64,000 nt of DNA from Eledone cirrhosa (Eukaryota), in assembly GCA_964016885.1 (NCBI GenBank), contig OZ024764.1:2790001-2854000 (forward strand). Direction: 5' to 3'. Below are positions 32,946-61,660 of this stretch, piece after piece. Both the position numbers and the translations under genes were made by a program. The stretch's first letter is position 1. Each line of letters starts with the position of its first letter. The notes under the pieces are model-generated. The model saw only the letters and a program-made list of their open reading frames with translations. It ran no database searches and was not told the origin of the DNA.

Positions 32946-35900
32946 ATGTGGTTAGAATGTCTGAGGAAAGAATCTCTGAATTGAGAGATCACAGCTCTGA
33001 TACTACAGACATGTGGTTAGAATGTCTGAGGAAAGAATCTCTGAATTAAGAGATCACAGCTCTGAAACTACAGACATGTGGTTAGAATGTCTGAGGAAAG
33101 AATCTCTAAATTGAGAGATCACAACTCTGATACTACAGACATGTGGTTAGAATGTCTCAGGAAAGAATCTCTAAATTGAGAGATCACAGCTCTGATACTA
33201 CAGACATGTGGTTAGATTGTCTCAGGAAAGAAACTCGGAATTGAGAGACCACAGCTCTGATACTACAGATATGTGGTTAGAATGTCTCAGGAAAGAATCT
33301 CTAAATTGAGAGATCACAGCTCTGATACTACAGACATGTGGTTAGAATGTCTCAGGAAAGAATCTCTAAATTGAGAGATCACAGCTCTGATATTACAGAC
33401 ATGTGGTTAGAATGTCTCAGGAAATAACCTCTGAATTGAGAGACCACAGCTCTGATACTACAGACATGTGGTTAGAATGTCTGAGGAAAGAATCTCTGAA
33501 TTGAGAGATCACAGTTCTGATACTACAGACATGTGGTTAGATTGTCTCAGGAAAGAATCTCTAAATTGAGAGATCACAGCTCTGATATTACAGACATGTG
33601 GTTAGAATGTCTCAGGAAAGAACCTCTGAATTGAGAGACCACAGCTCTGATATTACAGACATGTGGTTAGAATGTCTCAGGAAAGAATCTCTAAATTGAG
33701 AGATCACAGCTCTGATACTACAGATATGTGGTTAGAATGTCTCAGGAAAGAATCTCTAAATTGAGAGATCACAGCTCTGATATTACAGACATGTGGTTAG
33801 AATGTCTCAGGAAAGAACCTCTGAATTGAGAGACCATGTTCTGATACTACAGACATGTGGTTAGAATGTCTGAGGTAAGAATCTCTGAATTGAGAGATCA
33901 CAGCTCTGATACTACAGACATGTGGTTAGAATGTCTCAGGAAATAATCTCTGAATTGAGAGATCACAGCTCTGATACTACAGACATGTGGTTAGAATGTC
34001 TCAGGTAAGAATCTCTAAATTGAGAAATCACAGCTGTGATACTACAGACATGTGGTTAGAATGTCTCAGGTAAGAATCTCTAAATTGAGAGATCACAGCT
34101 CTGATACTACAGACATGTGGTTAGAATGTCTCAGGTAAGAATCTCTAAATTGAGAGATCACAGCTTGATACTACAGACATGTGGTTAGAATGTCTGAGAA
34201 AAGAACCTCTGAATTGAGAGACCACAGCTCTGATACTACAGACATGTGGTTAGAATGTCTCAGGTAAGAATCTCTAAATTGAGAGATCACAGCTCTGATA
34301 CTACAGACATATGGTTAGAATGTCTCAGGAAAGAATCTCTGAATTGAGAGATCACAGCTCTGATACTACAGACATGTGGTTAGAATGTCTCAGGTAAGAA
34401 TCTCTAAATTGAGAGATCACAGCTCTGATACTACAGACATATGGTTAGAATGTCTGAGAAAAGAACCTCTGAATTGAGAGACCACAGCTCTGATACTACA
34501 GACATGTGGTTAGAATGTCTCAGGTAAGAATCTCTAAATTGAGAGATCACAGCTATGATACTACAGACATGTGGTTAGAATGTCTCAGGAAAGAATCTCT
34601 GAATTGAGAGACCATGCTCTGATACTACAGACATGTGGTTAGAATGTCTGAGGTAAGAATCTCTGAATTGAGAGATCACAGCTCTGATACTACAGACATG
34701 TGGTTAGAATGTCTCAGGAAATAATCTCTGAATTGAGAGATCACAGCTCTGATACTACAGACATGTGGTTAGAATGTCTCAGGTAAGAATCTCTAAATTG
34801 AGAAATCACAGCTGTGATACTACAGACATGTGGTTAGAATGTCTCAGGTAAGAATCTCTAAATTGAGAGATCACAGCTCTGATACTACAGACATGTGGTT
34901 AGAATATCTCAGGTAAGAATCTCTAAATTGAGAGATCACAGCTTGATACTACAGACATGTGGTTAGAATGTCTGAGAAAAGAACCTCTGAATTGAGAGAC
35001 CACAGCTCTGATACTACAGACATGTGGTTAGAATGTCTCAGGTAAGAATCTCTAAATTGAGAGATCACAGCTCTGATACTACAGACATATGGTTAGAATG
35101 TCTCAGGAAAGAATCTCTGAATTGAGAGATCACAGCTCTGATACTACAGACATGTGGTTAGAATGTCTCAGGTAAGAATCTCTAAATTGAGAGATCACAG
35201 CTTGATACTACAGACATGTGGTTAGAATGTCTGAGAAAAGAACCTCTGAATTGAGAGACCACAGCTCTGATACTACAGACATGTGGTTAGAATGTCTCAG
35301 GTAAGAATCTCTAAATTGAGAGATCACAGCTCTGATACTACAGACATATGGTTAGAATGTCTCAGGAAAGAATCTCTGAATTGAGAGATCACAGCTCTGA
35401 TACTACAGACATGTGGTTAGAATGTCTCAGGTAAGAATCTCTAAATTGAGAGATCACAGCTCTGATACTACAGACATGTGGTTAGAATGTCTGAGAAAAG
35501 AACCTCTGAATTGAGAGATCACAGCTCTGATACTACAGACATGTGGTTAGAATGTCTCAGGTAAGAATCTCTAAATTGAGAGATCACAGCTTGATACTAC
35601 AGACATGTGGTTAGAATGTCTGAGAAAAGAACCTCTGAATTGAGAGACCACAGCTCTGATACTACAGACATGTGGTTAGAATGTCTCAGGTAAGAATCTC
35701 TAAATTGAGAGATCACAGCTCTGATACTACAGACATATGGTTAGAATGTCTGAGGAAAGAATCTCTGAATTGAGAGATCACAGCTCTGATACTACAGACA
35801 TGTGGTTAGAATGTCTCAGGTAAGAATCTCTAAATTGAGAGATCACAGCTTGATACTACAGACATGTGGTTAGAATGTCTGAGAAAAGAACCTCTGAATT

Positions 35901-36347
35901 GAGAGACCACAGCTCTGATACTACAGACATGTGGTTAGAATGTCTCAGGTAAGAATCTCTAAATTGAGAGATCACAGCTCTGATACTACAGACATATGGT
36001 TAGAATGTCTCAGGAAAGAATCTCTGAATTGAGAGATCACAGCTCTGATACTACAGACATGTGGTTAGAATGTCTGAGAAAAGAACCTCTGAATTGAGAG
36101 ACCACAGCTCTGATACTACAGACATGTGGTTAGAATGTCTCAGGTAAGAATCTCTAAATTGAGAGATCACAGCTCTGATACTACAGACATATGGTTAGAA
36201 TGTCTCAGGAAAGAATCTCTGAATTGAGAGATCACAGCTCTGATACTACAGACATGTGGTTAGAATGTCTCAGGTAAGAATCTCTAAATTGAGAGATCAC
36301 AGCTATGATACTACAGACATGTGGTTAGAATGTCTGAGGAAAGAATT
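32946..36347 (+). repeat. 65-bp satellite (about 52 copies) derived from RTE ORF2
   Basis: Unit CTCTGAATTGAGAGATCACAGCTCTGATACTACAGACATGTGGTTAGAATGTCTCAGGAAAGAAT; period 65 (33010 to 33075). Confidence 0.97.
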
Positions 36348-36586
36348 GCCGGACAAATTTTACAGGTAAAACCAGCCGGCAGGAAACGTGGGGTTAGACC
36401 CTAAGCAAGATGGTTGGATAGGATCTATGAGCTTGGCTGGTCACACTTGGGGATCCAGCCGGATCAGTTGGAGATGGCTGCTTCTGACAGGACCCACTGG
36501 AGGGAGTTTTTAAGGACTCTCTCCCTATGGCCTTCTCTGGAAGAAGAAGAAGAAGAAGAAGAAGAAGAAGAAGAAGAAGAAGAAGA
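36318..36586 (+). mobile_element. RTE LINE 3' end (family III) continuing from the last 65-bp unit, with (GAA)n tail
   Basis: HVVRMSEERIAGQILQVKPAGRKRGVRP*ARWLD...AASDRTHWR. Confidence 0.82.
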
Positions 36587-36596
36587 TTTTTTTTTA

Positions 36597-39500
36597 GATC
36601 CGTTGGATGTGCAATGTGAATGTGTGTGAACGACCCAGCATGAATGTGTTGAGATAGAAACTGTGTCTGAGAGGGATAGAGTGTAGTGTACGGGAGAGGA
36701 GACTGCGTTGGTATGGACATGTGATGTGTTGAGAGAGAAACTGTGTCTGAGAGGGATAGAATGTAGTGTACGGGAGAGGAGACTGAGATGGTATGGACAT
36801 GTGATGTGTTGAGAGAGAAACTGTGTCTGAGAGGGATAGAATGTAGTGTGTGGGAGAGGAGACTGAGATGGTATGGACATGTGATGTGTTGAGAGAGAAA
36901 CTGTGTCTGAGAGGGATAGAATGTAGTGTGTGGGAGAGGAGACTGAGATGGTATGGACATGTGATGTGTTGAGAGAGAAACTGTGTCTGAGAGGGATAGA
37001 ATGTAGTGTGTGGGAGAGGAGACTGAGATGGTATGGACATGTGATGTGTTGAGAGAGAAACTGTGTCTGAGAGGGATAGAATGTAGTGTGTGGGAGAGGA
37101 GACTGAGATGGTATGGACATGTGATGTGTTGAGAGAGAAACTGTGTCTGAGAGGGATAGAATGTAGTGTGTGGGAGAGGAGACTGAGATGGTATGGACAT
37201 GTGATGTGTTGAGAGAGAAACTGTGTCTGAGAGGGATAGAATGTAGTGTGTGGGAGAGGAGACTGAGATGGTATGGACATGTGATGTGTTGAGAGAGAAA
37301 CTGTGTCTGAGAGGGATAGAATGTAGTGTGTGGGAGAGGAGACTGAGATGGTATGGACATGTGATGTGTTGAGAGAGAAACTGTGTCTGAGAGGGATAGA
37401 ATGTAGTGTGTGGGAGAGGAGACTGAGATGGTATGGACATGTGATGTGTTGAGAGAGAAACTGTGTCTGAGAGGGATAGAATGTAGTGTGTGGGAGAGGA
37501 GACTGAGATGGTATGGACATGTGATGTGTTGAGAGAGAAACTGTGTCTGAGAGAGATAGAATGTAGTGTACGGGAGAGAAGACTGAGGTGGTATGGACAT
37601 GTGATGTGTTGAGAGAGAAACTGTGTCTGAGAGGGATAGAATGTAGTGTGTGGGAGAGGAGACTGAGATGGTATGGACATGTGATGTGTTGAGAGAGAAA
37701 CTGTGTCTGAGAGGGATAGAATGTAGTGTGTGGGAGAGGAGACTGAGATGGTATGGACATGTGATGTGTTGAGAGAGAAACTGTGTCTGAGAGGGATAGA
37801 ATGTAGTGTGTGGGAGAGGAGACTGAGATGGTATGGACATGTGATGTGTTGAGAGAGAAACTGTGTCTGAGAGGGATAGAATGTAGTGTGTGGGAGAGGA
37901 GACTGAGATGGTATGGACATGTGATGTGTTGAGAGAGAAACTGTGTCTGAGAGGGATAGAATGTAGTGTGTGGGAGAGGAGACTGAGATGGTATGGACAT
38001 GTGATGTGTTGAGAGAGAAACTGTGTCTGAGAGAGATAGAATGTAGTGTACGGGAGAGAAGACTGAGGTGGTATGGACATGTGATGTGTTGAGAGAGAAA
38101 CTGTGTCTGAGAGGGATAGAATGTAGTGTGTGGGAGAGGAGACTGAGATGGTATGGACATGTGATGTGTTGAGAGAGAAACTGTGTCTGAGAGGGATAGA
38201 ATGTAGTGTGTGGGAGAGGAGACTGAGATGGTATGGACATGTGATGTGTTGAGAGAGAAACTGTGTCTGAGAGAGATAGAATGTAGTGTACGGGAGAGAA
38301 GACTGAGGTGGTATGGACATGTGATGTGTTGAGAGAGAAACTGTGTCTGAGAGGGATAGAATGTAGTGTGTGGGAGAGGAGACTGAGATGGTATGGACAT
38401 GTGATGTGTTGAGAGAGAAACTGTGTCTGAGAGGGATAGAATGTAGTGTGTGGGAGAGGAGACTGAGATGGTATGGACATGTGATGTGTTGAGAGAGAAA
38501 CTGTGTCTGAGAGAGATAGAATGTAGTGTACGGGAGAGAAGACTGAGGTGGTATGGACATGTGATGTGTTGAGAGAGAAACTGTTTAAGAGGGATAGAAT
38601 GTAGTGTACGGGAGAGGAGACTGAGGTGGTATGGACATGTGATGGGCTGAGAGAGAAACTGTGTCTGAGAGAGATAGAATGTAGTGTACGGGAGAGGAGA
38701 CTGAGGTGGTATGGACATGTGATGTGTTGAGAGAGAAACTGTGTCTGAGAGAGATAGAATGTAGTGTACGGGAGAGGAGACTGAGGTGGTATGGACATGT
38801 GATGTGTTGAGAGAGAAACTGTTTAAGAGGGATAGAATGTAGTGTACGGGAGAGGAGACTGAGGTGGTATGGACATGTGATGGGCTGAGAGAGAAACTGT
38901 TTAAGAGGGATAGAATGTAGTGTACGGGAGAGGAGACTGAGGTGGTATGGACATGTGATGTGTTGAGAGAGAAACTGTGTCTGAGAGAGATAGAATGTAG
39001 TGTACGGGAGAGGAGACTGAGGTGGTATGGACATGTGATGTGTTGAGAGAGAAACTGTGTCTGAGAGAGATAGAATGTAGTGTACGGGAGAGGAGACTGA
39101 GGTGGTATGGACATGTGATGTGTTGAGAGAGAAACTGTTTAAGAGGGATAGAATGTAGTGTACGGGAGAGGAGACTGAGGTGGTATGGACATGTGATGGG
39201 CTGAGAGAGAAACTGTTTAAGAGGGATAGAATGTAGTGTACGGGAGAGGAGACTGAGGTGGTATGGACATGTGATGTGTTGAGAGAGAAACTGTGTCTGA
39301 GAGGGATAGAATGTAGTGTACGGGAGAGGAGACTGAGGTGGTATGGACATGTGATGTGTTGAGAGAGAAACTGTGTCTGAGAGGGATAGAATGTAGTGTA
39401 CGGGAGAGGAGACTGAGGTGGTATGGACATGTGATGTGTTGAGAGAGAAACTGTGTCTGAGAGGGATAGAATGTAGTGTACGGGAGAGAAGACTGAGGTG

Positions 39501-42500
39501 GTATGGACATGTGATGTGTTGAGAGAGAAACTGTGTCTGAGAGGGATAGAATGTAGTGTACGGGAGAGGAGACTGAGGTGGTATGGACATGTGATGTGTT
39601 GAGAGAGAAACTGTGTCTGAGAGGGATAGAATGTAGTGTGTGGGAGAGGAGACTGAGGTGGTATGGACATGTGATGTGTTGAGAGAGAAACTGTGTCTGA
39701 GAGGGATAGAATGTAGTGTGTGGGAGAGGAGACTGAGGTGGTATGGACATGTGATGTGTTGAGAGAGAAACTGTGTCTGAGAGGGATAGAATGTAGTGTA
39801 CGGGAGAGGAGACTGCGGTGGTATGGACATGTGATATGTTGAGAGAGAAACTGTGTCTGAGAGGGATAGAATGTAGTGTGTGGGAGAGGAGACTGAGGTG
39901 GTATGGACATGTGATGTGTTGAGAGAGAAACTGTGTCTGAGAGGGATAGAATGTAGTGTGTGGGAGAGGAGACTGAGGTGGTATGGACATGTGATGTGTT
40001 GAGAGAGAAACTGTGTCTGAGAGGGATAGAATGTAGTGTACGGGAGAGGAGACTGCGGTGGTATGGACATGTGATATGTTGAGAGAGAAACTGTGTCTGA
40101 GAGGGATAGAATGTAGTGTGTGGGAGAGGAGACTGCGGTGGTATGGACATGTGATGTGTTGAGAGAGAAACTGTGTCTGAGAGGGATAGAATGTAGTGTA
40201 CGGGAGAGGAGACTGAGGTGGTATGGACATGTGATGTGTTGAGAGAGAAACTGTGTCTGAGAGGGATAGAATGTAGTGTACGGGAGAGAAGACTGAGGTG
40301 GTATGGACATGTGATGTGTTGAGAGAGAAACTGTGTCTGAGAGGGATAGAATGTAGTGTACGGGAGAGGAGACTGAGGTGGTATGGACATGTGATGTGTT
40401 GAGAGAGAAACTGTGTCTGAGAGGGATAGAATGTAGTGTGTGGGAGAGGAGACTGAGGTGGTATGGACATGTGATGTGTTGAGAGAGAAACTGTGTCTGA
40501 GAGGGATAGAATGTAGTGTGTGGGAGAGGAGACTGAGGTGGTATGGACATGTGATGTGTTGAGAGAGAAACTGTGTCTGAGAGGGATAGAATGTAGTGTG
40601 TGGGAGAGGAGACTGAGGTGGTATGGACATGTGATGTGTTGAGAGAGAAACTGTGTCTGAGAGGGATAGAATGTAGTGTACGGGAGAGGAGACTGCGGTG
40701 GTATGGACATGTGATATGTTGAGAGAGAAACTGTGTCTGAGAGGGATAGAATGTAGTGTGTGGGAGAGGAGACTGAGGTGGTATGGACATGTGATGTGTT
40801 GAGAGAGAAACTGTGTCTGAGAGGGATAGAATGTAGTGTACGGGAGAGGAGACTGAGGTGGTATGGACATGTGATGTGTTGAGAGAGAAACTGTGTCTGA
40901 GAGGGATAGAATGTAGTGTACGGGAGAGAAGACTGAGGTGGTATGGACATGTGATGTGTTGAGAGAGAAACTGTGTCTGAGAGGGATAGAATGTAGTGTA
41001 CGGGAGAGGAGACTGAGGTGGTATGGACATGTGATGTGTTGAGAGAGAAACTGTGTCTGAGAGGGATAGAATGTAGTGTACGGGAGAGGAGACTGAGGTG
41101 GTATGGAGATGTGATGTGTTGAGAGAGAAACTGTGTCTGAGAGGGATAGAATGTAGTGTACGGGAGAGAAGACTGAGGTGGTATGGACATGTGATGTGTT
41201 GAGAGAGAAACTGTGTCTGAGAGGGATAGAATGTAGTGTACGGGAGAGGAGACTGAGGTGGTATGGACATGTGATGTGTTGAGAGAGAAACTGTGTCTGA
41301 GAGGGATAGAATGTAGTGTACGGGAGAGGAGACTGAGGTGGTATGGACATGTGATGTGTTGAGAGAGAAACTGTGTCTGAGAGGGATAGAATGTAGTGTA
41401 CGGGAGAGAAGACTGAGGTGGTATGGACATGTGATGTGTTGAGAGAGAAACTGTGTCTGAGAGGGATAGAATGTAGTGTACGGGAGAGGAGACTGAGGTG
41501 GTATGGACATGTGATGGGCTGAGAGAGAAACTGTGTCTGAGAGAGATAGAATGTAGTGTACGGGAGAGGAGACTGAGGTGGTATGGACATGTGATGTGTT
41601 GAGAGAGAAACTGTGTCTGAGAGAGATAGAATGTAGTGTACGGGAGAGGAGACTGAGGTGGTATGGACATGTGATGTGTTGAGAGAGAAACTGTTTAAGA
41701 GGGATAGAATGTAGTGTACGGGAGAGGAGACTGAGGTGGTATGGACATGTGATGGGCTGAGAGAGAAACTGTTTAAGAGGGATAGAATGTAGTGTACGGG
41801 AGAGGAGACTGAGGTGGTATGGACATGTGATGTGTTGAGAGAGAAACTGTGTCTGAGAGAGATAGAATGTAGTGTACGGGAGTGGAGACTGAGGTGGTAT
41901 GGACATGTGATGTGTTGAGAGAGAAACTGTGTCTGAGAGAGATAGAATGTAGTGTACGGGAGAGGAGACTGAGGTGGTATGGACATGTGATGTGTTGAGA
42001 GAGAAACTGTTTAAGAGGGATAGAATGTAGTGTACGGGAGAGGAGACTGAGGTGGTATGGACATGTGATGGGCTGAGAGAGAAACTGTTTAAGAGGGATA
42101 GAATGTAGTGTACGGGAGAGGAGACTGAGGTGGTATGGACATGTGATGTGTTGAGAGAGAAACTGTGTCTGAGAGGGATAGAATGTAGTGTACGGGAGAG
42201 GAGACTGAGGTGGTATGGACATGTGATGTGTTGAGAGAGAAACTGTGTCTGAGAGGGATAGAATGTAGTGTACGGGAGAGGAGACTGAGGTGGTATGGAC
42301 ATGTGATGTGTTGAGAGAGAAACTGTGTCTGAGAGGGATAGAATGTAGTGTACGGGAGAGAAGACTGAGGTGGTATGGACATGTGATGTGTTGAGAGAGA
42401 AACTGTGTCTGAGAGGGATAGAATGTAGTGTACGGGAGAGGAGACTGAGGTGGTATGGACATGTGATGTGTTGAGAGAGAAACTGTGTCTGAGAGGGATA

Positions 42501-44471
42501 GAATGTAGTGTGTGGGAGAGGAGACTGAGGTGGTATGGACATGTGATGTGTTGAGAGAGAAACTGTGTCTGAGAGGGATAGAATGTAGTGTGTGGGAGAG
42601 GAGACTGAGGTGGTATGGACATGTGATGTGTTGAGAGAGAAACTGTGTCTGAGAGGGATAGAATGTAGTGTACGGGAGAGGAGACTGCGGTGGTATGGAC
42701 ATGTGATATGTTGAGAGAGAAACTGTGTCTGAGAGGGATAGAATGTAGTGTGTGGGAGAGGAGACTGAGGTGGTATGGACATGTGATGTGTTGAGAGAGA
42801 AACTGTGTCTGAGAGGGATAGAATGTAGTGTGTGGGAGAGGAGACTGAGGTGGTATGGACATGTGATGTGTTGAGAGAGAAACTGTGTCTGAGAGGGATA
42901 GAATGTAGTGTACGGGAGAGGAGACTGCGGTGGTATGGACATGTGATATGTTGAGAGAGAAACTGTGTCTGAGAGGGATAGAATGTAGTGTGTGGGAGAG
43001 GAGACTGAGGTGGTATGGACATGTGATGTGTTGAGAGAGAAACTGTGTCTGAGAGGGATAGAATGTAGTGTACGGGAGAGGAGACTGAGGTGGTATGGAC
43101 ATGTGATGTGTTGAGAGAGAAACTGTGTCTGAGAGGGATAGAATGTAGTGTACGGGAGAGAAGACTGAGGTGGTATGGACATGTGATGTGTTGAGAGAGA
43201 AACTGTGTCTGAGAGGGATAGAATGTAGTGTACGGGAGAGGAGACTGAGGTGGTATGGACATGTGATGTGTTGAGAGAGAAACTGTGTCTGAGAGGGATA
43301 GAATGTAGTGTGTGGGAGAGGAGACTGAGGTGGTATGGACATGTGATGTGTTGAGAGAGAAACTGTGTCTGAGAGGGATAGAATGTAGTGTGTGGGAGAG
43401 GAGACTGAGGTGGTATGGACATGTGATGTGTTGAGAGAGAAACTGTGTCTGAGAGGGATAGAATGTAGTGTGTGGGAGAGGAGACTGAGGTGGTATGGAC
43501 ATGTGATGTGTTGAGAGAGAAACTGTGTCTGAGAGGGATAGAATGTAGTGTACGGGAGAGGAGACTGCGGTGGTATGGACATGTGATATGTTGAGAGAGA
43601 AACTGTGTCTGAGAGGGATAGAATGTAGTGTGTGGGAGAGGAGACTGAGGTGGTATGGACATGTGATGTGTTGAGAGAGAAACTGTGTCTGAGAGGGATA
43701 GAATGTAGTGTACGGGAGAGGAGACTGAGGTGGTATGGACATGTGATGTGTTGAGAGAGAAACTGTGTCTGAGAGGGATAGAATGTAGTGTACGGGAGAG
43801 AAGACTGAGGTGGTATGGACATGTGATGTGTTGAGAGAGAAACTGTGTCTGAGAGGGATAGAATGTAGTGTACGGGAGAGGAGACTGAGGTGGTATGGAC
43901 ATGTGATGTGTTGAGAGAGAAACTGTGTCTGAGAGGGATAGAATGTAGTGTACGGGAGAGGAGACTGAGGTGGTATGGAGATGTGATGTGTTGAGAGAGA
44001 AACTGTGTCTGAGAGGGATAGAATGTAGTGTACGGGAGAGAAGACTGAGGTGGTATGGACATGTGATGTGTTGAGAGAGAAACTGTGTCTGAGAGGGATA
44101 GAATGTAGTGTACGGGAGAGGAGACTGAGGTGGTATGGAGATGTGATGTGTTGAGAGAGAAACTGTGTCTGAGAGGGATAGAATGTAGTGTGCGGGAGAG
44201 GAGACTGAGGTGGTATAGACATGTGATGCGCATGGAGGATGACCGATGGGTGAAGAAGTGCCAGGAAATGCCAGTTGAAGGAAGACATTGTAGAGGTAGA
44301 CCACGAAAAACATGGGCGGAGGTGGTGAGAACAGACCTCAGATCGCTGAAGCTCACAGTGGAGATGACAAAGGACGGTGACAAGTGGAGAGATGCTGTGC
44401 TGAATAGGACCCGTCCCACCCTTGCAAGCAGGGAAAAGCGGACGTATGATGATGATGATGATGATGATGAT
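36597..44471 (+). mobile_element. RTE family I 3' fragment expanded internally by the 80-bp array
   Basis: Left flank CCGTTGGATGTGCAATGTGAATG...GACCCAGCATGAATG and right flank ATGCGCATGGAGGATGACC...(GAT)n both match 11316-11676. Confidence 0.93.
36645..44228 (+). repeat. 80-bp satellite (about 95 copies; some 78-bp variants)
   Basis: Unit ATGTGTTGAGAGAGAAACTGTGTCTGAGAGGGATAGAATGTAGTGTACGGGAGAGGAGACTGAGGTGGTATGGACATGTG. Confidence 0.98.
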
Positions 44472-44614
44472 AAACACTTTAAAACAGTTTTTCTTTAAAT
44501 CAGAACCTGCGATGGTTTTAGGCGGTATTGCATGAAAAGGTTTAAATTAACAGTGAAAGGGAGATAAATCTGATATTTCTTTACTTTATCTATGTGTAGA
44601 TTCTTTCGGGCTCT

Positions 44615-45095: not shown

Positions 45096-45199
45096 GGGAG
45101 AGATGTTTACTTCTATTTATTCGATATGACAGTATCTAATTAGAATTTTAGCTGCAAAAAGAGTGAATTTTATTAAGTCTTGCACTAAACAAATCAGTC

Positions 45200-46210: not shown

Positions 46211-46259
46211 GCCTCACGTTTCTCGACCACAATGGCTACCATTGTCTTTTGGAGACCCG

Positions 46260-49185: not shown

Positions 49186-50475
49186 TATATATATATATAT
49201 ATAGATACATACACACACACGCATATATATATATATATATATATATAGGAAAAAGTATGACCCCAATGGCAGAGCTCAAGCCGTTTCGACGGCTATTTCT
49301 GGACTATTTGTAGTCCACAAATATCCGTTGAAACGGCTTGAGCTCTGCCGTCGGGGTCATACCTTTTCCTATTTCCCACTCTACTACCCTAAGTATAGAG
49401 TACTCTGGTGCGTTATGGTCCATCTGGTTCCTTACCACAATTCCTTTGTTATACATATATATACATACGTACCCCTCTCTCTCTCTCTATATATATATAA
49501 TTAAAAGTGGATTCCCGATGGGGATCGGGGAAATAATCACAGCTAAAAAAAGGTACTCAATACGTTGACAGACTGTAGATATCTTTATTTTGGTAGAGAA
49601 ATGACTTCTACAGGTCTAGAACTGTTTCATTCGTATGAATCAGGACTTTCCTGATGATTTCATAGGAATCAAACAGTTCCAATCTTGTAGAAGTCATTTC
49701 TATACAATATATATATATATGTAATAAACAACATAAGATAATTATTTCATTTACCAGTGGTTTCTTGAAAGCAAATATATCTGTTTTCAGTCGTCAGAAT
49801 GAATAAAACATGGTGTTTTTATTAAATAATCCATATTTAATAAAAACACCATGTTTTATTCATTCTGACAACTGAAAATAGATATATCTGCTTTCAAGAA
49901 ACCACTGGTAAATGAAATAATTATCTTATGTTGTTTACTACATAACTAATAAGCTCTGTAGCCTACATAGAGCACTCTTTTTTCCTGTACCTTTCCGATG
50001 GAATTATTTTATATATATATATATATAAAGAAATTAAAAGATGGTTAAAAGAGTACCATATATTTTATTATGCGCATTTCGAATACAAAATCATCCTGGG
50101 ACAAAAATTGTATTCTCATCAGATAAAATAAGGTAACATGATATGAGGCATAATAGCTCTTGTTTACAGGAAAGTGCTAAGTCAACCTATGATACTATAG
50201 TAAGAAATAGATAGGAAAATAGAAGATATATAGAATATATATATATATATATATGTAAAAGTTCTATTTAAATTGTTGGGGTACAACAAGCAAATATTTT
50301 TATAACTGCTATAAAGCACTCAACAAATATTTGGAGTAAAAATATGATATTAACTATCCGGGAGCTTCCAACAGAAATGGTTGCATTCTTTAAGGGTGTG
50401 TCAATATTTATTTATAAAACTGCTCTATATTATATTTTATCTGATGAAAGCACACCATAATTTAACTTGGTGTCC

Positions 50476-52005: not shown

Positions 52006-52084
52006 AGCAACCCACCACAATTATTTCTACTGAATCTCATACTTAGAGATTATAATATTATCAATGACTTGCTGTAGCTTATAG

Positions 52085-52400
52085 TGTAGGTTACCATAGG
52101 GTAGGTTACCTGACGGTAGTTACGATCGTTTAGGCTACCGTAGGTTAGGTTACCATAGGGTAGGATACTGTAGGTTAGGTTACCATAGGGTAGGTTAGCA
52201 TAGGTTAGGTTACCACAGGGTAGGTTAACATAGGTTAGGTTACCACAGAGTAGGTTAGCATAGGTTAGGTTACCATAGGGTAGGATATCATAGGTTAGGT
52301 TACCATAGGTTAAGTTACCATAGGTTAGGTTACCATAGGTTAAGTTACCATAGGTTAGGTTACCATAGGGTAGGTTACCATAGGTCTGTTAAGGTTAGGC
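52085..52400 (+). repeat. 30-bp (3x10) repeat TAGGTTAGGTTACCATAGGGTAGGTTACCA
   Basis: Direct reading. Confidence 0.9.
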
Positions 52401-52489
52401 GAGGCTGGTTCACTCAATGAGTTAGAACTCACTTGCAACTGAAGTGTTTTAGAAGTGTCTTAGCCTTTAGTGTGCCACTAAATTCTTTG

Positions 52490-52627
52490 AATTATTTCCC
52501 CTGCAACTACCTTATTTTTTAGGGGTCATCTTATCTGGCGAATATGGGCCTAAACCTGAATTACACCTCAGTATTTTAGGGGTAGACCTATGCGCCGGAT
52601 CGACTTGTATGCTGGCATATACGGTAG
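52490..52627 (-). mobile_element. Tc1/mariner (Tc2/pogo-like) terminal fragment
   Basis: Minus strand begins TA|CCGTATATGCCAGCATACAAGTCGA, resembling Tc2-type TIRs; recalled similarity only. Confidence 0.45.
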
Positions 52628-52959
52628 TTACTTATATACATGAATATAAACAAGGGCTGGACAGGTCCACATAAACCAACTGAGTACTGAAGTGGGGCTA
52701 CTGACTCCACCAGAGAAAGGGGTGGTTGCATTAAAGTATTTCATGTTCTACTGAGTGCAACAGCACAGGAGAGGTCATGTCTTTGATACAACTGAAGGGT
52801 CTTCCCAGCCCTTTGTTTTGCAAGATATCTATAGCTGGATGCCCTTCCTATCACCAACCACTTTACAGACTGTACTGGGTGTTTAACATATAGATCACCA
52901 ACACTAGAGAGGTTGTCATATCTTTGACACAACTGAAGGGTCCTTTGTTTTGCAACATA

Positions 52960-53870
52960 TCATCATCATCATCGTTTAATGTCCATCTTCCACGCTAGCA
53001 TGGGTTAGACGGGAGTTGTCCCACTTGAGGCAAGTTGGATCGGGTGACCGTGTCTCGCTCATATAGGACTATCTGGCAGGTTTTCCACGGCTGGATGCCA
53101 TTCCTAACACCAACAACATTTACAGTGTGGACTGGGAACTTTTTACCGTGTCTCCTACACAGCCACATTACAGTGTGGACTGTGTGTTTTTTTGTCATGA
53201 CACCTACATGACCACTTTACAGTGGACTGGGAACATTTTACCTTGTCTCCTACACAACCACATTACAGTGTGGACTGTGTGTTTTTTTGTCATGACACCT
53301 ACATGACCACTTTACAGTGTGGACTGGGAACTTTTTACCGTGTCTCCTACACAACCACTTTACAGTGTGGACTGTGTTTTTTTGTCATGACACCTACATG
53401 ACCACTTTACAGTGTGGACTGGGAACCTTTTACCGTGTCTCCTACATAACCACATTACAGCGTGGACTGTGTGTTTTTTTGTCATGACACCTACATGACC
53501 ACTTTACAGTGTGGACTGGGAACTTTTTATCGTGTCTCCTACACAGCCACATTACAGCGTGGACTGTGTGTTTTTTTGTCATGATACCTACATGACCACT
53601 TTACAGTGTGGACTGGGAACCTTTTACCGTGTCTCCTACATAACCACATTACAGCGTAGACTGTGTTTTTGTCGTGACCCCTACACAACCTCTTTAGTTT
53701 GGACTGGATGTTGTGGAACCAACATAACTTTGTAGAGAAAGGGTGGTGTTGGAGGGAGTGGAAGGATGGGGTAGTGGATTGGGGTGTATATTTGGTTTGG
53801 AGGGGCCTACTGACTGTAGGTTAACTTTGTACATAAGGAAGGTGGGTCTTCTGTATTACAGCATTGCGCC
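52960..53870 (-). mobile_element. RTE 3' UTR with alternating two-monomer array (53120-53690)
   Basis: Matches 29445-29890; the GGGAAC-type and TGTGTT-type about 49-bp units alternate. Confidence 0.88.
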
Positions 53871-54046
53871 AATATACGTCTGTATATATATTTAAAAAAA
53901 ATTTTTTTAATTAAAATCTTTTTCTTTATTCATTTCAGATTTTTAATTCAACCTAATTGCTGTAATTTTATTTAATATTTAAAAATACAAAACAAAACCA
54001 CATAGAAATAAAAAAAGGGGTTACCAAAGACAGAAAAGTTGAAAAT

Positions 54047-54157
54047 ATGCCAAGCAAACGTAAACGTCCCACTCAGAATGTAGACAACAAGAGTGAAGAT
54101 TCGGATCTATCAACTCATGTTTCCAATAAGAAGAAGAGAAAGGCTCCGTATGATCCT
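54047..54157 (+). CDS. PBRM1: First coding exon of a host gene, polybromo-1 (BAF180)-like N-terminus; exon 53939-54157
   Basis: Polypyrimidine acceptor TTTTTCTTTATTCATTTCAG|, AAAATATG start, MPSKRKRPTQ...KKKRKAPYDP, phase-0 donor |GTGAGT. Resembles recalled PBRM1 starts (MGSKRRR...RKRRR..VDP; fly ...KKRRLDP). The exon call is stronger than the gene identity. Confidence 0.55.
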
Positions 54158-54189
54158 GTGAGTAACTCCTTTATTTCTCTTAACCCTTT

Positions 54190-54398
54190 CATCAACGTTT
54201 TACGTCCATTTTTCCATGCTAGCATGGGTTAGACAGGTTGTCCTGTTGTGGGGCAGTGCTAGGTCAGGTGACCATGTCTTGTTCATACAGAACTAATTTA
54301 GACTTCGTTTCTACAGCTGGATGTCCTTCTTAACACCAACCTCATTTACAATGAGTACTGGGTGCTTTTTGCCATGACACCGACACAACCACTTTACA
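54190..54398 (-). mobile_element. Diverged RTE family II 3' UTR end
   Basis: Reverse complement similarity to 56040-56240. Confidence 0.8.
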
Positions 54399-55157
54399 TA
54401 GCTCTGATACTACAGACATGTGGTTAGAATGTCTGAGGAAAGAATCTCTGAATTGAGAGATCACAGCTCTGATACTACAGACATGTGGTTAGAATGTCTC
54501 AGGAAAGAATCTCTGAATTTAGAGATGACAGCTCTGATACTACACACATGTGATTAGAATGTCTCAGGAAAGAATCTCTGAATTGAGAGATCACAGCTCT
54601 GATACTACAGACATGAGGTTAGAATGTCTCAGGAAAGAATTTCCAAATTGAGAGATCACAGCTCTGAAACTACAGACATGTGATAAGAATGTCTCAGGAA
54701 AGAATCTCTGAATTGAGAGATCACAGCTCTGATACTACAGACATGTGGTTAGAATGTCTCAGGAAAGAATCTCTGAATTGAGAGATCACAGCTCTGATAC
54801 TACATGTGATTAGAATGTCTCAGGAAGGAATCTCTGAATTGAGAGATCACAGCTCTGATACTACAGGCATGTGCTTAGAATGTCTCACAAAAGAATCTCT
54901 GAATTGAGAGATCACAGCTCTGATACTACAGACATGTGGTTAGAATGTCTCAGGAAAGAATCTCTGAATTGAGAGATCACAGCTCTGATACTACACACAT
55001 GTGGTTAGAATGTCTCAGGTAAGAATCTCTGAAGTGAGAGATCACAGCTCTGATACTACAGACATGTGGTTAGAATGTCTCAGGAAAGAATCTTTGAATT
55101 GAGAGATCACAGCTCTGATACTACAAACATGTGGTTAGAATGTCCCAGGAAAGAATC
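54399..55157 (+). repeat. Second array of the 65-bp satellite (about 11.5 copies)
   Basis: Same unit as 32946-36347 with different variants. Confidence 0.96.
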
Positions 55158-56251
55158 TTGCTCAGTATGTAGGAAAGGTGTAGGTAGGAACTCCAGTCTC
55201 TGTCCCAAATGCAAACAATGGGTACACAAGAGATCTAGCGGGATCTCAAGAAGCTTAATTAAGAATGTAGGCTTCACATGCAGCAGCTGTGCTGGGACAG
55301 CAAGCAGCAAACAGCCACAGGAAACAAGTACCACTAATCTCTGGGAGGGCTCTGTAGAAACAGTAGACAGCTTCTGCTACCTAGGTGACCAAATTAGCAG
55401 CGGAGGTGGGTGTTCAGAAAATACAATAACTAGGGTAAGAACGGGATGGAAGAAGTTCAGGAAACTCCTGCCACTGCTAGCTGCAAATGGCTTCTCCCTC
55501 AGAATGAAAGGCAGACTGTATGATGCGTGTATCCGAACAGCAATGTTGCATGGTAGTGAGACCTGGGCACTGAAGGTGGAAGACTTACGTAGATTAGAAA
55601 GAAACGAAGCCTGCATGCTCCGATGGATGTGTAATAGTAATAATCGCAAACGACAAAGCATAAATGGATTGAGAGAGAGACTGAGCATAAGAGGAATCAA
55701 ATGCTGTGTGCAAGAGAGGCGGTTGCGTTGGTATGGACATGTGATGCGTATGAAGGATGACAGCTGCATAAAAAGGTGCAGAACACTAGAAGTCAATGGA
55801 AATCGCGGAGTGGGGAGACCCAAGAAGACCTGGGATGAGGTGATAAAAGCTGACCTTATCCAATTACACCTCTCAAAGGTGATGACACACGACCGTGACC
55901 TCTGGCGTCACGCAGTAATACAGAGTACCCGACCTCCCATGGGTACAAGCTGAAGCATATTGACAATATGCCCCCACACCCTCCCAGTGCAAGGTGGTCG
56001 TGGAGGTGCCATGGCAAAAAAGCACCCAGCCCACACTGTAAAGTGGACATGTAGGCGCCACGGAAAAAGCACCCAGTACTCGCTGCAAATGAGGTTGGTG
56101 TTAGGAAGGGCATCCAGCTGTAGAAATAAAGCCAAAATCAGTTCCTGTATGAGCAAGGTATGGTCAGCTGACCAGACACTGCCCGCAACAGGACAACCCG
56201 TCTAACCCATGCTAGCGTGGAAGAACGGACGTAAAACGGTGATGATAATGA
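55158..56251 (+). mobile_element. RTE LINE family II 3' part
   Basis: CSVCRKGVGRNS...FCYLGD...HGSETWAL...RRLRWYGHVMRM, UTR and (GAT)n; near-identical to 50480-51466 inverted. Confidence 0.95.
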
Positions 56252-56254
56252 TAC

Positions 56255-58762
56255 TAGAGTAATGTAAATGTTATGTGAGATATTATGTGAGGTAAAGCCT
56301 TTACTGTGAAAATATAATAGTATATATAGAGTAATGTAAATGTTATGTGAGGTAAAGCCTTTACTGTGAAAATACAATAGTATATATAGAGTAATGTAAA
56401 TGTTATGTGAGATATTATGTGAGGTAAAGCCTTTACTGTGACAATACAATAGTATATATAGAGTAATGTAAATGTTATGTGAGATATTATGTGAGGTAAA
56501 GCCTTTACTGTGACAATACAATAGTATATATAGAGTAATGTAAATGTTATGTGAGATATTATGTGAGGTAAAGCCTTTACTGTGAAAATACAATAGTATA
56601 TATAGAGTAATGTAAATGTTATGTGAGATATTATATGAGGTAAAGCCTTTACTGTGAAAATACAATAGTATATATAGAGTAATGTAAATGTTATGTGAGG
56701 TAAAGCCTTTACTGTGAAAATACAATAGTATATATAGAGTAATGTAAATGTTATGTGAGATATTATGTGAGGTAAAGCCTTTACTGTGACAATACAATAG
56801 TATATATAGAGTAATGTAAATGTTATGTGAGATATTATGTGAGGTAAAGCCTTTACTGTGACAATACAATAGTATATATAGAGTAATGTAAATGTTATGT
56901 GAGATATTATGTGAGGTAAAGCCTTTACTGTGACAATACAATAGTATATATAGAGTAATGTAAATGTTATGTGAGATATTATGTGAGGTAAAGCCTTTAC
57001 TGTGACAATACAATAGTATATATAGAGTAATGTAAATGTTATGTGAGATATTATGTGAGGTAAAGCCTTTACTGTGAAAATACAATAGTATATAGAGAGT
57101 AATGTAAATGTTATGTGAGGTAAAGCCTTTACTGTGAAAATACAATAGTATATAGAGAGTAATGTAAATGTTATGTGAGGTAAAGCCTTTACTGTGAAAA
57201 TACAATAGTATATAGAGAGTAATGTAAATGTTATGTGAGATATTATGTGAGGTAAAGCCTTTACTGTGAAAATACAATAGTATATAGAGAGTAATGTAAA
57301 TGTTATGTGAGGTAAAGCCTTTACTGTGAAAATACAATAGTATATATAGAGTAATGTAAATGTTATGTGAGATATTATGTGAGGTAAAGCCTTTACTGTG
57401 AAAATACAATAGTATATAGAGAGTAATGTAAATGTTATGTGAGGTAAAGCCTTTACTGTGAAAATACAATAGTATATATAGAGTAATGTAAATGTTATGT
57501 GAGGTAAAGCCTTTACTGTGAAAATACAATAGTATATATAGAGTAATGTAAATGTTATGTGAGATATTATGTGAGGTAAAGCCTTTACTGTGAAAATACA
57601 ATAGTATATAGAGAGTAATGTAAATATTATGTGAGGTAAAGCCTTTACTGTGAAAATACAATAGTATATAGAGAGTAATGTAAATGTTATGTGAGGTAAA
57701 GCCTTTACTGTGAAAATACAATAGTATATATAGAGTAATGTAGATGTTATGTGAGATATTATGTGAGGTAAAGCCTTTACTGTGAAAATACAATAGTATA
57801 TAGAGAGTAATGTAAATGTTATGTGAGGTAAAGCCTTTACTGTGAAAATACAATAGTATATAGAGAGTAATGTAAATGTTATGAGATATTATGTGAGGTA
57901 AAGCCTTTACTGTGAAAATACAATAGTATATAGAGAGTAATGTAAATGTTATGTGAGGTAAAGCTTTTACTGTGAAAATACAATAGTATATAGAGAGTAA
58001 TGTAAATGTTATGTGAGATATTATGTGAGGTAAAGCCTTTACTGTGAAAATACAATAGTATATATAGAGTAATGTAAATGTTATGTGAGATATTATGTGA
58101 GGTAAAGCCTTTACTGTGACAATACAATAGTATATATAGAGTAATGTAAATGTTATGTGAGATATTATGTGAGGTAAAGCCTTTACTGTGAAAATACAAT
58201 AGTATATATAGAGTAATGTAGATGTTATGTGAGATATTATGTGAGGTAAAGCCTTTACTGTGAAAATACAATAGTATATAGAGAGTAATGTAAATGTTAT
58301 GTGAGGTAAAGCCTTTACTGTGAAAATACAATAGTATATAGAGAGTAATGTAAATGTTATGTGAGGTAAAGCCTTTACTGTGAAAATACAATAGTATATA
58401 GAGAGTAATGTAAATGTTATGTGAGGTAAAGCCTTTACTGTGAAAATACAATAGTATATAGAGAGTAATGTAAATGTTATGTGAGATATTATGTGAGGTA
58501 AAGCCTTTACTGTGACAATACAATAGTATATATAGAGTAATGTAAATGTTATGTGAGATATTATGTGAGGTAAAGCCTTTACTGTGACAATACAATAGTA
58601 TATATAGAGTAATGTAAATGTTATGTGAGATATTATGTGAGGTAAAGCCTTTACTGTGAAAATACAATAGTATATAGAGAGTAATGTAAATGTTATGTGA
58701 GATATTGTGAGGTAAAGACTTTACTGTGACAATACAATAGTATATATAGAGTACTGTAAATG
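56255..58762 (+). repeat. AT-rich 60/72-bp satellite (about 37 copies)
   Basis: Unit AGAGTAATGTAAATGTTATGTGAG[ATATTATGTGAG]GTAAAGCCTTTACTGTGAAAATACAATAGTATATAT; the 12-bp segment is optional. Confidence 0.97.
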
Positions 58763-58789
58763 CTAAAGGGTTAATATGGTACTTAGTAC

Positions 58790-61660
58790 ATGAGGTCTTA
58801 GTCTTGGGTTCTTCCGCCACATCAAGCAGTAAATAGTCGCCAATGATCACGACCAGTGGAGGCTTTATTACGTCTGTCCCAAGTAATGTTGGCTTTCGTC
58901 ACGTCATATTGGACTGTTTGCCGCCAGGTGATCCTGGGGCAACCCCACCTCCGTTTGCTGTCGGGTGTAGTCTAGTTCATCGTTGTTTTCAAGTGTCGTT
59001 CGTTGTGCAGGGGCAGAATATAGCCAGCCAGGCAACAGCAGCACTTCGTGACCACCCTCTGCTAGACAGCCAGGTGACACCAGAGCTCTGTGACCACCCT
59101 CTGTAGACAGCCAGGTGACACCAGAGCTCTGTGACCACCCTCTGCTAGTCAGCCAGGTGACACCAGAGCTCTGTGACCACCCTCTGCTAGACAGCCAGGT
59201 GACACCAGAGCTCTGTGACCACCCTCTGCTAGTCAGCCAGGTGACACCACAGCTCTGTGACCACCCTCTGCTAGACAGTCACGTGACACCAGAGCTCTGT
59301 GACCACCCTCTGCTAGACAGCCAGGTGACACCAGAGCTCTGTGACCACCCTCTGCTAGACAGCCAGGTGACACCAGAGCTCTGTGACCACCCTCTGCTAG
59401 ACAGCCAGGTGACACCAGAGCTCTGTGACCACCCTCTGCTAGACAGCCAGGTGACACCAGAGCTCTGTGACCACCCTCTGCTAGACAGCCAGGTGACACC
59501 AGAGCTCTGTGACCACCCTCTGCTAGACAGCCAGGTGACACCAGAGCTCTGTGACCACCCTCTGCTAGACAGCCAGGTGACACCAGCGCTCTGTGACCAC
59601 CCTCTGCTAGACAGCCAGGTGACACCAGAGCTCTGTGACCACCCTCTGCTAGACAGCCAGGTGACACCAGAGCTCTGTGACCACCCTCTGCTAGACAGCC
59701 AGGTGACACCAGAGCTCTGTGACCACCCTCTGTAGTCAGCCAGGTGACACCAGAGCTCTGTGACCACCCTCTGCTAGACAGCCAGGTGACACCAGAGCTC
59801 TGTGACCACCCTCTGCTAGACAGCCAGGTGACACCAGAGCTCTGTGACCACCCTCTGCTAGGCAGTCACGTGACACCAGAGCTCTGTGACCACCCTCTGC
59901 TAGTCAGCCAGGTGACACCACAGCTCTGTGACCACCCTCTGCTAGACAGTCACGTGACACCAGAGCTCTGTGACCACCCTCTGCTAGACAGCCAGGTGAC
60001 ACCAGAGCTCTGTGACCACCCTCTGCTAGTCAGCCAGGTGACACCACAGCTCTGTGACCACCCTCTGCTAGACAGTCACGTGACACCAGAGCTCTGTGAC
60101 CACCCTCTGCTAGACAGCCAGGTGACACCAGAGCTCTGTGACCACCCTCTGCTAGACAGCCAGGTGACACCAGAGCTCTGTGACCACCCTCTGCTAGACA
60201 GCCAGGTGACACCAGAGCTCTGTGACCACCCTCTGCTAGACAGCCAGGTGACACCAGAGCTCTGTGACCACCCTCTGCTAGACAGCCAGGTGACACCAGC
60301 GCTCTGTGACCACCCTCTGCTAGACAGCCAGGTGACACCAGAGCTCTGTGACCACCCTCTGCTAGACAGCCAGGTGACACCAGAGCTCTGTGACCACCCT
60401 CTGCTAGACAGTCACGTGACACCAGCGCTCTGTGACCACCCTCTGCTAGACAGCCAGGTGACACCAGCGCTCTGTGACCACCCTCTGCTAGACAGCCAGG
60501 TGACACCAGAGCTCTGTGACCACCCTCTGCTAGACAGTCACGTGACACCAGAGCTCTGTGACCACCCTCTGCTAGTCAGCCAGGTGACACCAGCGCTCTG
60601 TGACCACCCTCTGCTAGACAGCCAGGTGACACCAGAGCTCTGTGACCACCCTCTGCTAGACAGCCAGGTGACACCAGAGCTCTGTGACCACCCTCTGCTA
60701 GACAGTCACGTGACACCAGAGCTCTGTGACCACCCTCTGCTAGACAGCCAGGTGACACCAGCGCTCTGTGACCACCCTCTGCTAGACAGCCAGGTGACAC
60801 CAGAGCTCTGTGACCACCCTCTGCTAGACAGCCAGGTGACACCAGAGCTCTGTGACCACCCTCTGCTAGACAGCCAGGTGACACCAGAGCTCTGTGACCA
60901 CCCTCTGCTAGACAGCCAGGTGACACCAGAGCTCTGTGACCACCCTCTGCTAGTCGGCCAGGTGACACCAGAGCTCTGTGACCACCCTCTGCTAGACAGC
61001 CAGGTGACACCAGAGCTCTGCTAGACAGCCAGGTGACACCAGAGCTCTGTGACCACCCTCTGTAGACAGCCAGGTGACACCAGAGCTCTGTGACCACCCT
61101 CTGCTAGTCAGCCAGGTGACACCAGAGCTCTGTGACCACCCTCTGCTAGTCAGCCAGGTGACACCAGAGCTCTGTGACCACCCTCTGCTAGTCAGCCAGG
61201 TGACACCACAGCTCTGTGACCACCCTCTGCTAGACAGCCAGGTGACACCAGAGCTCGGTGACCACCCTCTGCTAGTCAGCCAGGTGAACCAGAGCTCTGT
61301 GACCACCCTCTGCTAGTCAGCCAGGTGACACCAGAGCTCTGTGACCACCCTCTGCTAGTCAGCCAGGTGACACCACAGCTCTGTGACCACCCTCTGCTAG
61401 ACAGCCAGGTGACACCAGAGCTCGGTGACCACCCTCTGCTAGTCAGCCAGGTGACACCAGAGCTCTGTGACCACCCTCTGCTAGACAGCCAGGTGACACC
61501 AGAGCTCTGTGACCACCCTCTGTAGCGTCCACAACTCAGCTCTCCCCAGGATTTCCTTGTTTCACACTCAGTTACGCCAGGACACACGAAGGATCCTTCG
61601 CAGGCCCCACTGGTGGAATGTGTTCAGCCCTCACTCTATCTTTTATGTGCTCCGCGTGTG
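58790..61660 (-). mobile_element. Old RTE-type LINE 3' region (family IV) interrupted by the 42-bp array
   Basis: Upstream flank LNTFHQWGLRRILRVSWRN*V*NKEILGRAELWTLQRVVT; downstream flank LAGYILPLHNERHLKT...KRRWGCPRITWRQT...GRDHWR. Confidence 0.8.
59048..61524 (+). repeat. 42-bp satellite (about 59 copies)
   Basis: Unit GTGACCACCCTCTGCTAGACAGCCAGGTGACACCAGAGCTCT. Confidence 0.98.

Follow-up and report, generated by a model that had tools for sequence, protein, structure and literature searches.

Tandem repeats that are tied to transposable elements have been described in several systems. In SVA and LTR12, many copies contain a VNTR at one fixed internal site; this VNTR was carried by master copies and moved with them by transposition. 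In the human genome, a survey of TE-derived tandem repeats describes minisatellites born within TE copies, finds regions of AluS and LTR12 (the tandem repeat of the latter also being treated there) to be spanned by more repeats, records 185 multilocus clusters, and assigns a mechanism to only 6 % of the TE-derived repeats (PMC3389668). The sSat repeats of squamate reptiles are reported as tandem units drawn from a single part of a retroposon, whose sequence is kept at one or both ends (PMC10702118). One sSat unit is present at many loci, where units are more alike than the element copies (89 vs 64 %); a few variants dominate, subtelomeric regions are preferred and the spread is ascribed to 'concerted evolution', leaving the route open in that account (PMC10702118). 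Finally, in the Drosophila simulans clade an Rsp-like satellite has entered 1.688 clusters, with a rare microhomology junction present at many loci, and the authors attribute its dissemination either to interlocus gene conversion or to eccDNA re-integration via homology to an abundant dispersed repeat (PMC7403614).

How one minisatellite unit reaches hundreds of dispersed loci has been poorly explained so far. A literature search, which drew mostly on sources other than subscription journals and supplements, returned no paper on LINE-hosted minisatellites that spread between paralogues, nor on a hotspot at an RTE motif. Here we describe LINE-hosted arrays that probably spread in this way, starting from a window of 64,000 nt of the Eledone cirrhosa genome (contig OZ024764.1). 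In this system one can read off the insertion, the subfamily and the flanks of each host, and thousands of uninvaded paralogues serve as controls, so that the step from a single copy to the first duplication is directly testable.

Arrays and host LINEs in the window

Using TRF and a translation check, we confirmed that the window contains three arrays with the translations quoted in the original prediction. The 65-bp array (32946–36346, + strand; TRF start 32945; 52.4 copies by TRF) repeats the motif region of a LINE family here termed C, and is in register with LINE sequence only on its 3′ side, where the 3′ end of the host (36347–36586, +) closes with a (GAA)n tail at 36540–36586. Directly behind this tail a family A copy is inserted: a 5′ remnant of ∼45 nt (36600–36643, +), the 80-bp array (36644–44228, +; 95 copies by TRF) and the 3′ end of the host (44229–44471, +) with its (GAT)n tail at 44446–44471, such that in-register LINE sequence is found at both ends. 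The 80-bp unit is purine-rich. The 42-bp array (59048–61522, − strand; ∼59 copies by TRF) lies within a family D copy and is in register with both its 5′ flank (61523–61690, −) and its 3′ flank (58795–59047, −). The claim that each of the three arrays is in frame with a LINE on at least one flank was thus borne out. The window additionally holds a family A copy with a single unit and no array (11290–11643, +), representing the uninvaded state, and the 3′ part of a family B LINE (55159–55953, +), in which the motif is single and unduplicated and which serves as an internal control. Between a SINE-like tail and this family B LINE there is an orphan 65-bp array of 11.7 copies (54400–55158, +), for which no cognate LINE flank was found at either side.

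The three arrays derive from three RTE-type LINE families (A, C and D), and in each the repeated part is the homologous R-x-x-R-x-x-GH stretch, as had been proposed; the hosts align at the motif with 22–25 % protein identity and have no mutual blastn match. The statement that all three units carry the same RTE motif stands for the homologous stretch but not for the complete motif, as the 42-bp unit, the source of which is LQRVVTERRCRLAG, ends at the G of GH and lacks the H. Six families align (18–63 % identity) over a C-terminal series of LY-SE-TW, RxLRxxGH, GRP and DR-xWR without a zinc knuckle. This series is that of the RTE C-terminus, and it is from this motif set, together with the label used in the original prediction, that we take the host families to belong to the RTE clade. 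Families A and B are 63 % identical across the C-terminal 140 aa. An RVT_1 domain (E-value 2.7e-32) is carried by the family B ORF, it being in this family that the RT domain is seen, whilst C, D, E and F are known from their 3′ parts; the 5′ end of ORF L014 is open. The 3′ ends are short, with simple-repeat tails of (GAT)n or (GAA)n, and the 5′ ends are variable. All array units are LINE ORF sequence rather than SINE-derived.

Tandem copies are in excess at the motif

Genome-wide counts revealed that 3.5 % of family A copies (the remaining 96.5 % being single-unit), ∼21 % of family C copies and 1.8 % of copies of family E, an out-of-sample family not used in forming the idea, are tandem at the motif. 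At control words located 85–170 nt downstream, by comparison, only 0.08–0.14 % of copies are tandem; tandem loci are 15–150-fold commoner at the motif in these three families. Control words were run for families A, C, E and B. The peak anticipated after normalization for copy number is therefore present in A and C and is repeated in E, but is absent from family B, where the same DNA word is tandem in 3 of 9301 copies, all of them singleton duplications, compared with three at −110. For family F the raw count of tandem loci at the motif, which is not normalized by copy number, was 0. As control words have equal or higher copy numbers, we rejected a pure coverage explanation for families A, C and E. 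The two-sided homology (coverage) profile forms a plateau from 0 to +120 with no peak at the motif, and does not predict the tandem excess; it also weighs against the reading of the arrays preferred below.

Neither DNA words nor RNA folding explained this position. None of the four words GGACATG, GGACATGTG, CATGTG and ACATGT was enriched among 116 satellite unit clusters (p 0.11–0.38; GGACATG p 0.14), and the DNA-word hypothesis was rejected. Folding of 80-nt windows in five families gave no shared RNA fold signal at the motif (z −1.4 to +1.4), and a family C word 125 nt upstream has ∼11 distinct junction types, about as varied as the motif (not normalized), and neither result supports the suggestion that an RNA structure is the cause. 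The shared position is most simply viewed as a founder effect in the central part of short 3′ fragments, which would be statistically sufficient. Against this, units placed at random would cover the motif with a probability of 0.1–0.45, whereas all family C types with three or more recurrences cover it. The encoded protein sequence probably plays no part in array position, and a nicking or break site at the motif is possible.

The same junctions recur in separate insertions

The 80-bp junction of the window was found in at least 157 separate insertions genome-wide (window copy included), with hosts that span the oldest to the youngest subfamily. For the 65-bp unit one fixed junction is present in 18 of the 94 listed family C loci, and for the 41/42-bp unit in four loci (the window array and three others), of which two 41-bp ones in family D, L354 and L356, are possibly copies of each other. 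As such, the three arrays are members of multi-locus junction families, and their proposed origin by independent local births is not supported. The original prediction as a whole is partly supported.

Truncations and flanks differ among the 30 loci of family A and the 20 of family C that were compared, and segmental duplication was therefore rejected as a source of their common junctions. No two of the 30 80-bp array entries examined are truncated at the same 5′ point (49–829 nt); two pairs were flagged for common upstream sequence, one of which extends past the reference whilst the other is (AT)n. Family C hosts that share a junction have a 3′ flank identity of 0.79–0.82, similar to single copies (0.79), compared with 0.82–0.99 for the unit region between loci. 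Junctions use only 0–3 bp of microhomology. That of the 80-bp unit is a 3-mer, in a stretch of 430 nt of the natural copy that holds 235 longer direct matches.

The neighbouring units of a two-unit array often belong to different subfamily haplotypes. Across 10 such family A arrays, 20 of the 28 inter-unit differences fall on the 11 subfamily-diagnostic sites among 80 (P 6e-12), and 8 of 13 old-subfamily hosts show the young-type base at internal junctions. Similarly, the CA allele adjoining the family C junction is present in 17 of 20 scorable arrays vs 7 of 26 single copies. This haplotype discordance shows ectopic exchange, which could post-date the duplication. No locus was seen in both the single and the duplicated state, so that gain after insertion is something we infer; contigs from four public runs were swamped by paralogues, and none spanned the locus.

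Arrays are clustered and avoid the largest chromosomes

None of the 157 80-bp entries is located on the four largest chromosomes (C1–C4), although family A single copies occur at ∼1 per Mb on C1; the expectation for C1–C4 was extrapolated, and a strict test limited to the initial 103 Mb of C1 gave a P of only 0.026. Among the 91 family C copies of C1, one is duplicated, vs ∼21 % overall, and for family E, 1 of 50 arrays of recurrent type is on C1–C4. Array-bearing copies therefore do not follow the insertion pattern of their families, which insert freely on large chromosomes. Random 200 kb samples from large chromosomes contained too few arrays to support a census. On subtelomeric location the picture is mixed: several of the large-chromosome cases are near contig ends (C1:1.47 Mb, C2:409–414 Mb, C7:93.9 Mb), yet arrays span much of C25.

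Moreover, junction types are clustered locally. Same-chromosome pairs of the same type numbered 141 vs 63 ± 8 expected in family C (94 loci) and 98 vs 61 ± 9 in family E (49 loci). On C27, all nine family E loci at 0.7–11.6 Mb are of the 81-bp type and all five at 17–21 Mb are of the 96-bp type, and on C20 rare unit variants are common to loci 0.4–1.4 Mb apart.

Probable origin and spread of the arrays

We consider it likely that these arrays are multi-locus minisatellites in register within separate LINE insertions, the junction of which moves to single-unit paralogues by ectopic recombination after insertion. A rare duplication with 0–3 bp of microhomology would arise once, in one LINE copy. 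A broken single-unit copy could then be repaired on a nearby array by ectopic gene conversion, in which synthesis crosses the junction before the copy rejoins its own far end, or else a circle shed by an array could integrate into a single-unit copy; either route would leave at least two units that keep the register of the host on both sides. Unequal exchange would subsequently expand and homogenize the array, giving the observed sizes of 2 to >500 units. Some arrays would land outside LINEs by microhomology, becoming orphans. New unit sizes would stem from deletions that span an old junction. More doubtful is a stronger version, wherein the GH-motif DNA would be a recombination-initiation site (a break or protein-binding site) of distant RTE families that is active on small chromosomes, and tandem junctions born there would behave like homing elements that lack a protein, passing through thousands of LINE copies and giving rise to satellites in a third of small-chromosome DNA.

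An unlikely alternative to movement between paralogues is that recurrent breaks or stalled forks at this site, on highly recombining small chromosomes, lead to the same few junctions re-forming locally. Junction types per copy do exceed those at downstream words in family C (14 types at the motif, from 94 listed loci and 982 copies, vs 5 among 3505) and family E (8 among 3011 vs 3 among 4153), 13 of the 14 family C types end ≤ 33 nt beyond the word, and GGACATG is common to families A, C and E as well as to a 47-bp array elsewhere in family A. Furthermore, several family C arrays (L295, L303, L307, L370, L377 and L378) carry host-private changes in both copies, up to ∼10–20 nt from the junction, which under paralogue transfer necessitates a short donor patch or later homogenization, and which fits local re-birth as well. 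Against recurrent birth stand the 0–3 bp microhomology and the clustering of types by chromosome segment, the lack of enrichment of the word, the varied types 125 nt upstream of it in family C, and the near-absence of tandem copies in family B despite an identical word. In addition, most junction types of families C and E are nested, and can be derived from one older duplication.

Rather improbable is the retrotransposition of LINEs that were already duplicated, with arrays expanding in place afterwards. Such master copies would fit arrays that are in register with tails and with 5′ truncations of the ordinary-insertion type, and as four of the six recurrent family C units (123, 111, 99 and 93 bp) and both main family E units (96 and 81 bp) are multiples of three, a duplicated master could have kept its frame. 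The 80-bp junction, however, is out of frame and is found in hosts of every subfamily age; array-bearing copies are absent or nearly so from C1–C4, where the same families insert freely; and junction types cluster in chromosome segments. Subfamily sites also suggest that array-bearing and single hosts are intermixed.

Repeated slippage of the reverse transcriptase at this point of the RNA during TPRT, as originally proposed, is very improbable and already largely refuted: the homologous position in four families and the confinement of most family A rare variants to one unit (31 vs 5 shared), as for copies of insertion age, agree with it, but under this model arrays should be distributed genome-wide, units should be identical when born and the active family B should be affected, none of which holds, and neither the lack of a common fold nor the post-insertion private changes in both copies of several old family C arrays accord with it.

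The system suggests that the first duplication in a copy is often a transfer between paralogues and not a new mutation. It would also map neighbourhoods of ectopic exchange on small chromosomes, and carries the warning that in-frame flanks are no proof of local birth. We claim no function for the arrays.

Comparison with known systems

Of the known systems, the sSat repeats and the Rsp-like spread come closest. As in SVA and LTR12, a tandem repeat is found here at a fixed internal position of many copies; the difference is that almost all family A copies are single-unit and that array-bearing copies depart from the insertion pattern. In the human survey, hotspots lie within one family and stem partly from built-in repeats moved by transposition, and that account describes no genomic hotspot, whereas the chromosomal bias seen here is extreme (PMC3389668). 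The Rsp-like satellite shares with our arrays a junction that recurs at many loci; there, however, a foreign satellite enters the clusters of another satellite, whilst here the host's own duplication is spread and what receives it is a transposon copy with a single unit (PMC7403614). As expected of interlocus exchange, our arrays have identical junctions at distant loci and discordant neighbouring units. With sSat, the arrays have in common that units come from one region of an element, with element sequence at an end, that one unit is present at many loci, more alike than its hosts, and that a few variants dominate (PMC10702118). They differ in that sSat hosts are SINEs and ours are coding LINE 3′ ends (PMC10702118). 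Here, moreover, the prevailing units of four unrelated families coincide at a single homologous position, and transfer between paralogues is indicated by the chromosome-local clusters of junctions and by two-unit arrays of discordant haplotypes. The arrays described here thus work like sSat, but are not sSat.

Tandem arrays of the window and their LINE hosts

TRF recovered the three arrays built from the R-x-x-R-x-x-GH motif in the C-terminal coding end of LINE ORF2, with unit matches of 92–97 % and at the places given in the original prediction, which is confirmed on this point. The 80-bp array (36644–44228, + strand) lies within a single copy of the family labelled A, flanked 5′ by ∼45 nt of LINE and 3′ by what remains of the ORF, followed by a (GAT)n tail, whilst the 42-bp array (59048–61522, − strand; family D) has LINE flanks in register on both sides. 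Single copies of family D carry the source sequence LQRVVTERRCRLAGHIL, and the 42-bp unit stops at G. The 65-bp array (32946–36346, + strand) has a non-LINE 5′ side and runs on into the 3′ end of family C with its (GAA)n tail; a second 65-bp array (54400–55158) is without a cognate LINE flank. Beyond the window by 15 kb, on the same contig (C25, ∼2,869,600–2,915,900; loci L072–L077), we observed a heterogeneous 46-kb array of 80-bp units with higher-order structure, where in-register family A flanks persist at both ends.

Families A, C and D share 22–25 % protein identity in alignment at the motif and have no mutual blastn match. Family B is an abundant relative of A, and families E and F were found later. 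The hosts are presumed to be RTE elements, a name taken from their C-terminal motifs and the label of the original prediction; the RT domain was confirmed against a domain library for family B, whose ORF (L014) bears a PHD-finger-like cysteine cluster directly after that domain (Pfam PHD, E-value 6.6 × 10−6). Additionally, a predicted 556-aa ORF (window 17724–19394, − strand) appears to resemble a reverse transcriptase of the Penelope type, behind which lies a putative GIY-YIG-like start.

Satellite content of small chromosomes

The genome spans 3.0 Gb, with largest contigs of 379–443 Mb; the window occupies positions 2,790,001–2,854,000 of C25, a contig of 29 Mb. A census of 1.064 Mb from four small contigs (C20 and C25–C27), a sample that takes in the window and its neighbours, identified 337 arrays constituting 35 % of bases. 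Among LINE-ORF unit lineages, five extend across or up to the motif (65/99/123, 80 with 139/141, 96/81, 42 and 50 bp) and four miss it (47, 142, 136 and 49/147 bp). Tandem copies in the small-chromosome sample numbered 4/19 for family A, 4/4 for C, 2/7 for E and 0/4 for B. The other top census families appear, on our own reading of their sequences, to have SINE-like, CR1-like and 3′ UTR sources.

The commonest satellite (78 of 337 arrays; window 12995–13849, 14447–14867, 53119–53670 and 55953–56240) has a 48/49-bp unit resembling a two-copy repeat built into the family B 3′ UTR, and this family B tail occurs on many short elements as well. Second commonest is a 72/60-bp AT-rich satellite (29 arrays; window 56282–58761). 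A 61-bp satellite (seven census arrays; L061:3881–4372, L065, L222), with source-like sequence at window 31580–31640, matches the part of a CR1-like LINE that encodes its C-terminal end, which suggests that such spreading also takes place in a further clade. A recurrent 62-bp array lies in register within three copies of one interspersed element (L236, L238, L211), and 84-bp arrays (L211:3627, L243:6378; seven in the census) encode C2H2 zinc-finger repeats, so that zinc-finger gene clusters on C25 and C27 are interspersed with these satellites.

Positional excess of duplications

For genome-wide counts, an 11-nt word repeated within 10–130 nt was paired with an anchor word lying a set distance away in the LINE, such that each array was counted about once; the word-plus-anchor count served as denominator. 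Family A (with B) gave 249 matches at the motif, the 80-bp junction (the boundary between adjacent units) being present in 84 of the 100 matches listed. Anchoring on the 5′ side gave 157 array entries against 4338 single-unit copies (3.5 %), this pattern having a geometry unlike that of the controls, which yielded 5 loci in 6309 at both 85 and 170 nt downstream of the motif word and 2 loci (raw count) 110 nt upstream. Family C gave 224 matches, an estimated ∼205–210 loci, as the 100 matches listed represented 94 loci, out of 982 copies (about 21 %); there were 5 loci in 3505 at +90 and 13 at −125 (a raw count, including one non-duplication). Family E, which was first met in the census and so serves as an out-of-sample test, was tandem in 55/3011 at the motif and 5/4153 at +92, where two of the five were not true duplications (Fisher P = 6 × 10−16), with 7 loci (raw count) at −87. 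For family D, the same 41/42-bp junction was found at three further loci among 40 scored candidates. Family B showed no excess for the identical word (3 singletons in 9301 copies at the motif; 3 at −110), and family F had no tandem copies at the motif, its recurrent 136-bp unit lying further downstream. The proposed peak at a homologous position is therefore real in three of the five families with genome-wide counts, and absent from B and F.

Shared junctions in separate insertions

Most loci belong to a few junction types: 123 bp (32 loci), 99 (21), 65 (18), 111 (8), 70 (5) and 93 bp (2) plus eight singletons among 94 family C loci, and 96 (32), 81 (15) and 83 bp (3) plus five singletons in family E. 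The array hosts are separate insertions. All 30 of the 80-bp entries fetched differed in 5′ truncation, hosts of 80-bp arrays span the family A subfamilies from oldest to youngest, and family C hosts show the same 3′ flank divergence as single copies. Junctions carry just 0–3 bp of microhomology, though longer matches lie nearby. As a comparison case, a 33-bp family E duplication at a natural 9-bp direct repeat (five loci on C6, C20, C23 and C24) likely represents true microhomology-driven recurrence. Of two occurrences of a 38-bp unit at the motif (L031, C1:557.9 kb; L047, C1:6.958 Mb), one lies in a family A host of old age and the other is an orphan in a larger repeated block.

The array units look imported. 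In ten two-unit family A arrays, 20 of 28 between-unit differences fall at 11 subfamily-diagnostic sites; in two mosaic arrays (L105, L202) the subfamily type changes along the array; and a derived allele next to the family C junction occurs in 17/20 arrays vs 7/26 single copies. Counting against importation, 6 of 47 family C arrays, read by eye, share host-private changes in both copies near the junction, which would need a short donor patch or later homogenization.

Furthermore, arrays do not track the LINE insertion pattern. On the four largest contigs (C1–C4) we found none of the 157 5′-anchored 80-bp arrays and one of 50 recurrent family E arrays; 1 of 91 family C copies on C1 was duplicated, and an unanchored pattern picked up one 80-bp array near the C1 end. 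Junction types cluster by permutation (family C, P = 5 × 10−5; family E, P = 9 × 10−4): C18 holds six of the eight 111-bp loci, a 170-kb stretch of C20 holds four of the five 70-bp loci, and C27 falls into an 81-bp and a 96-bp zone.

Proposed origin and spread of the arrays

We consider it rather probable that the motif excess reflects a few junctions spread among paralogues, in place of independent births by reverse-transcriptase slippage. A rare duplication would arise; a broken, nearby single-unit paralogue would then be repaired across the donor's junction and re-anneal at home or, alternatively, a circle of units would integrate by homology; and unequal exchange would enlarge arrays, up to the 46-kb example. 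Orphan arrays and nested unit sizes would be by-products, and each of the nested sizes (96 to 81; 123 to 99, 93, 70 and 65 bp) could have come from a deletion spanning a single older junction.

In A, C, D and E the motif is 215–240 nt away from the tail (vs about 500 nt in B, whose dominant satellite, of 48/49 bp, comes from its built-in repeat, 150–250 nt from the tail). As to why the winners of four families overlap the motif, founder effects would be enough: a random unit in this zone covers it with probability 0.1–0.45, the motif is missed in two families, and of the four, three were picked after the fact. There may nevertheless be a real break site at the motif, as the number of distinct types per copy there is several-fold that seen downstream and family C breakpoints cluster just behind it. 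The slippage births of the original prediction were not borne out: the genomic distribution, family B and RNA folding all speak against them.

Regarding such junction spread among paralogues, a literature search found no report of it in LINE coding ends, nor across families at one homologous site. Tandem-repeat hotspots inside transposable elements have been reported for Alu and LTR12 (PMC3389668), and the word 'satellite' is absent from the main text of a recent Octopus vulgaris repeat annotation (PMC13282606). Squamate SINE-derived satellites have the same anatomy, with a single unit shared by many loci, retained element ends and a chromosome-end bias, their route of spread being left unresolved there (PMC10702118). 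The Drosophila Rsp-like model invokes the same process, whereby homology to an abundant repeat carries a rare junction to new loci (PMC7403614).
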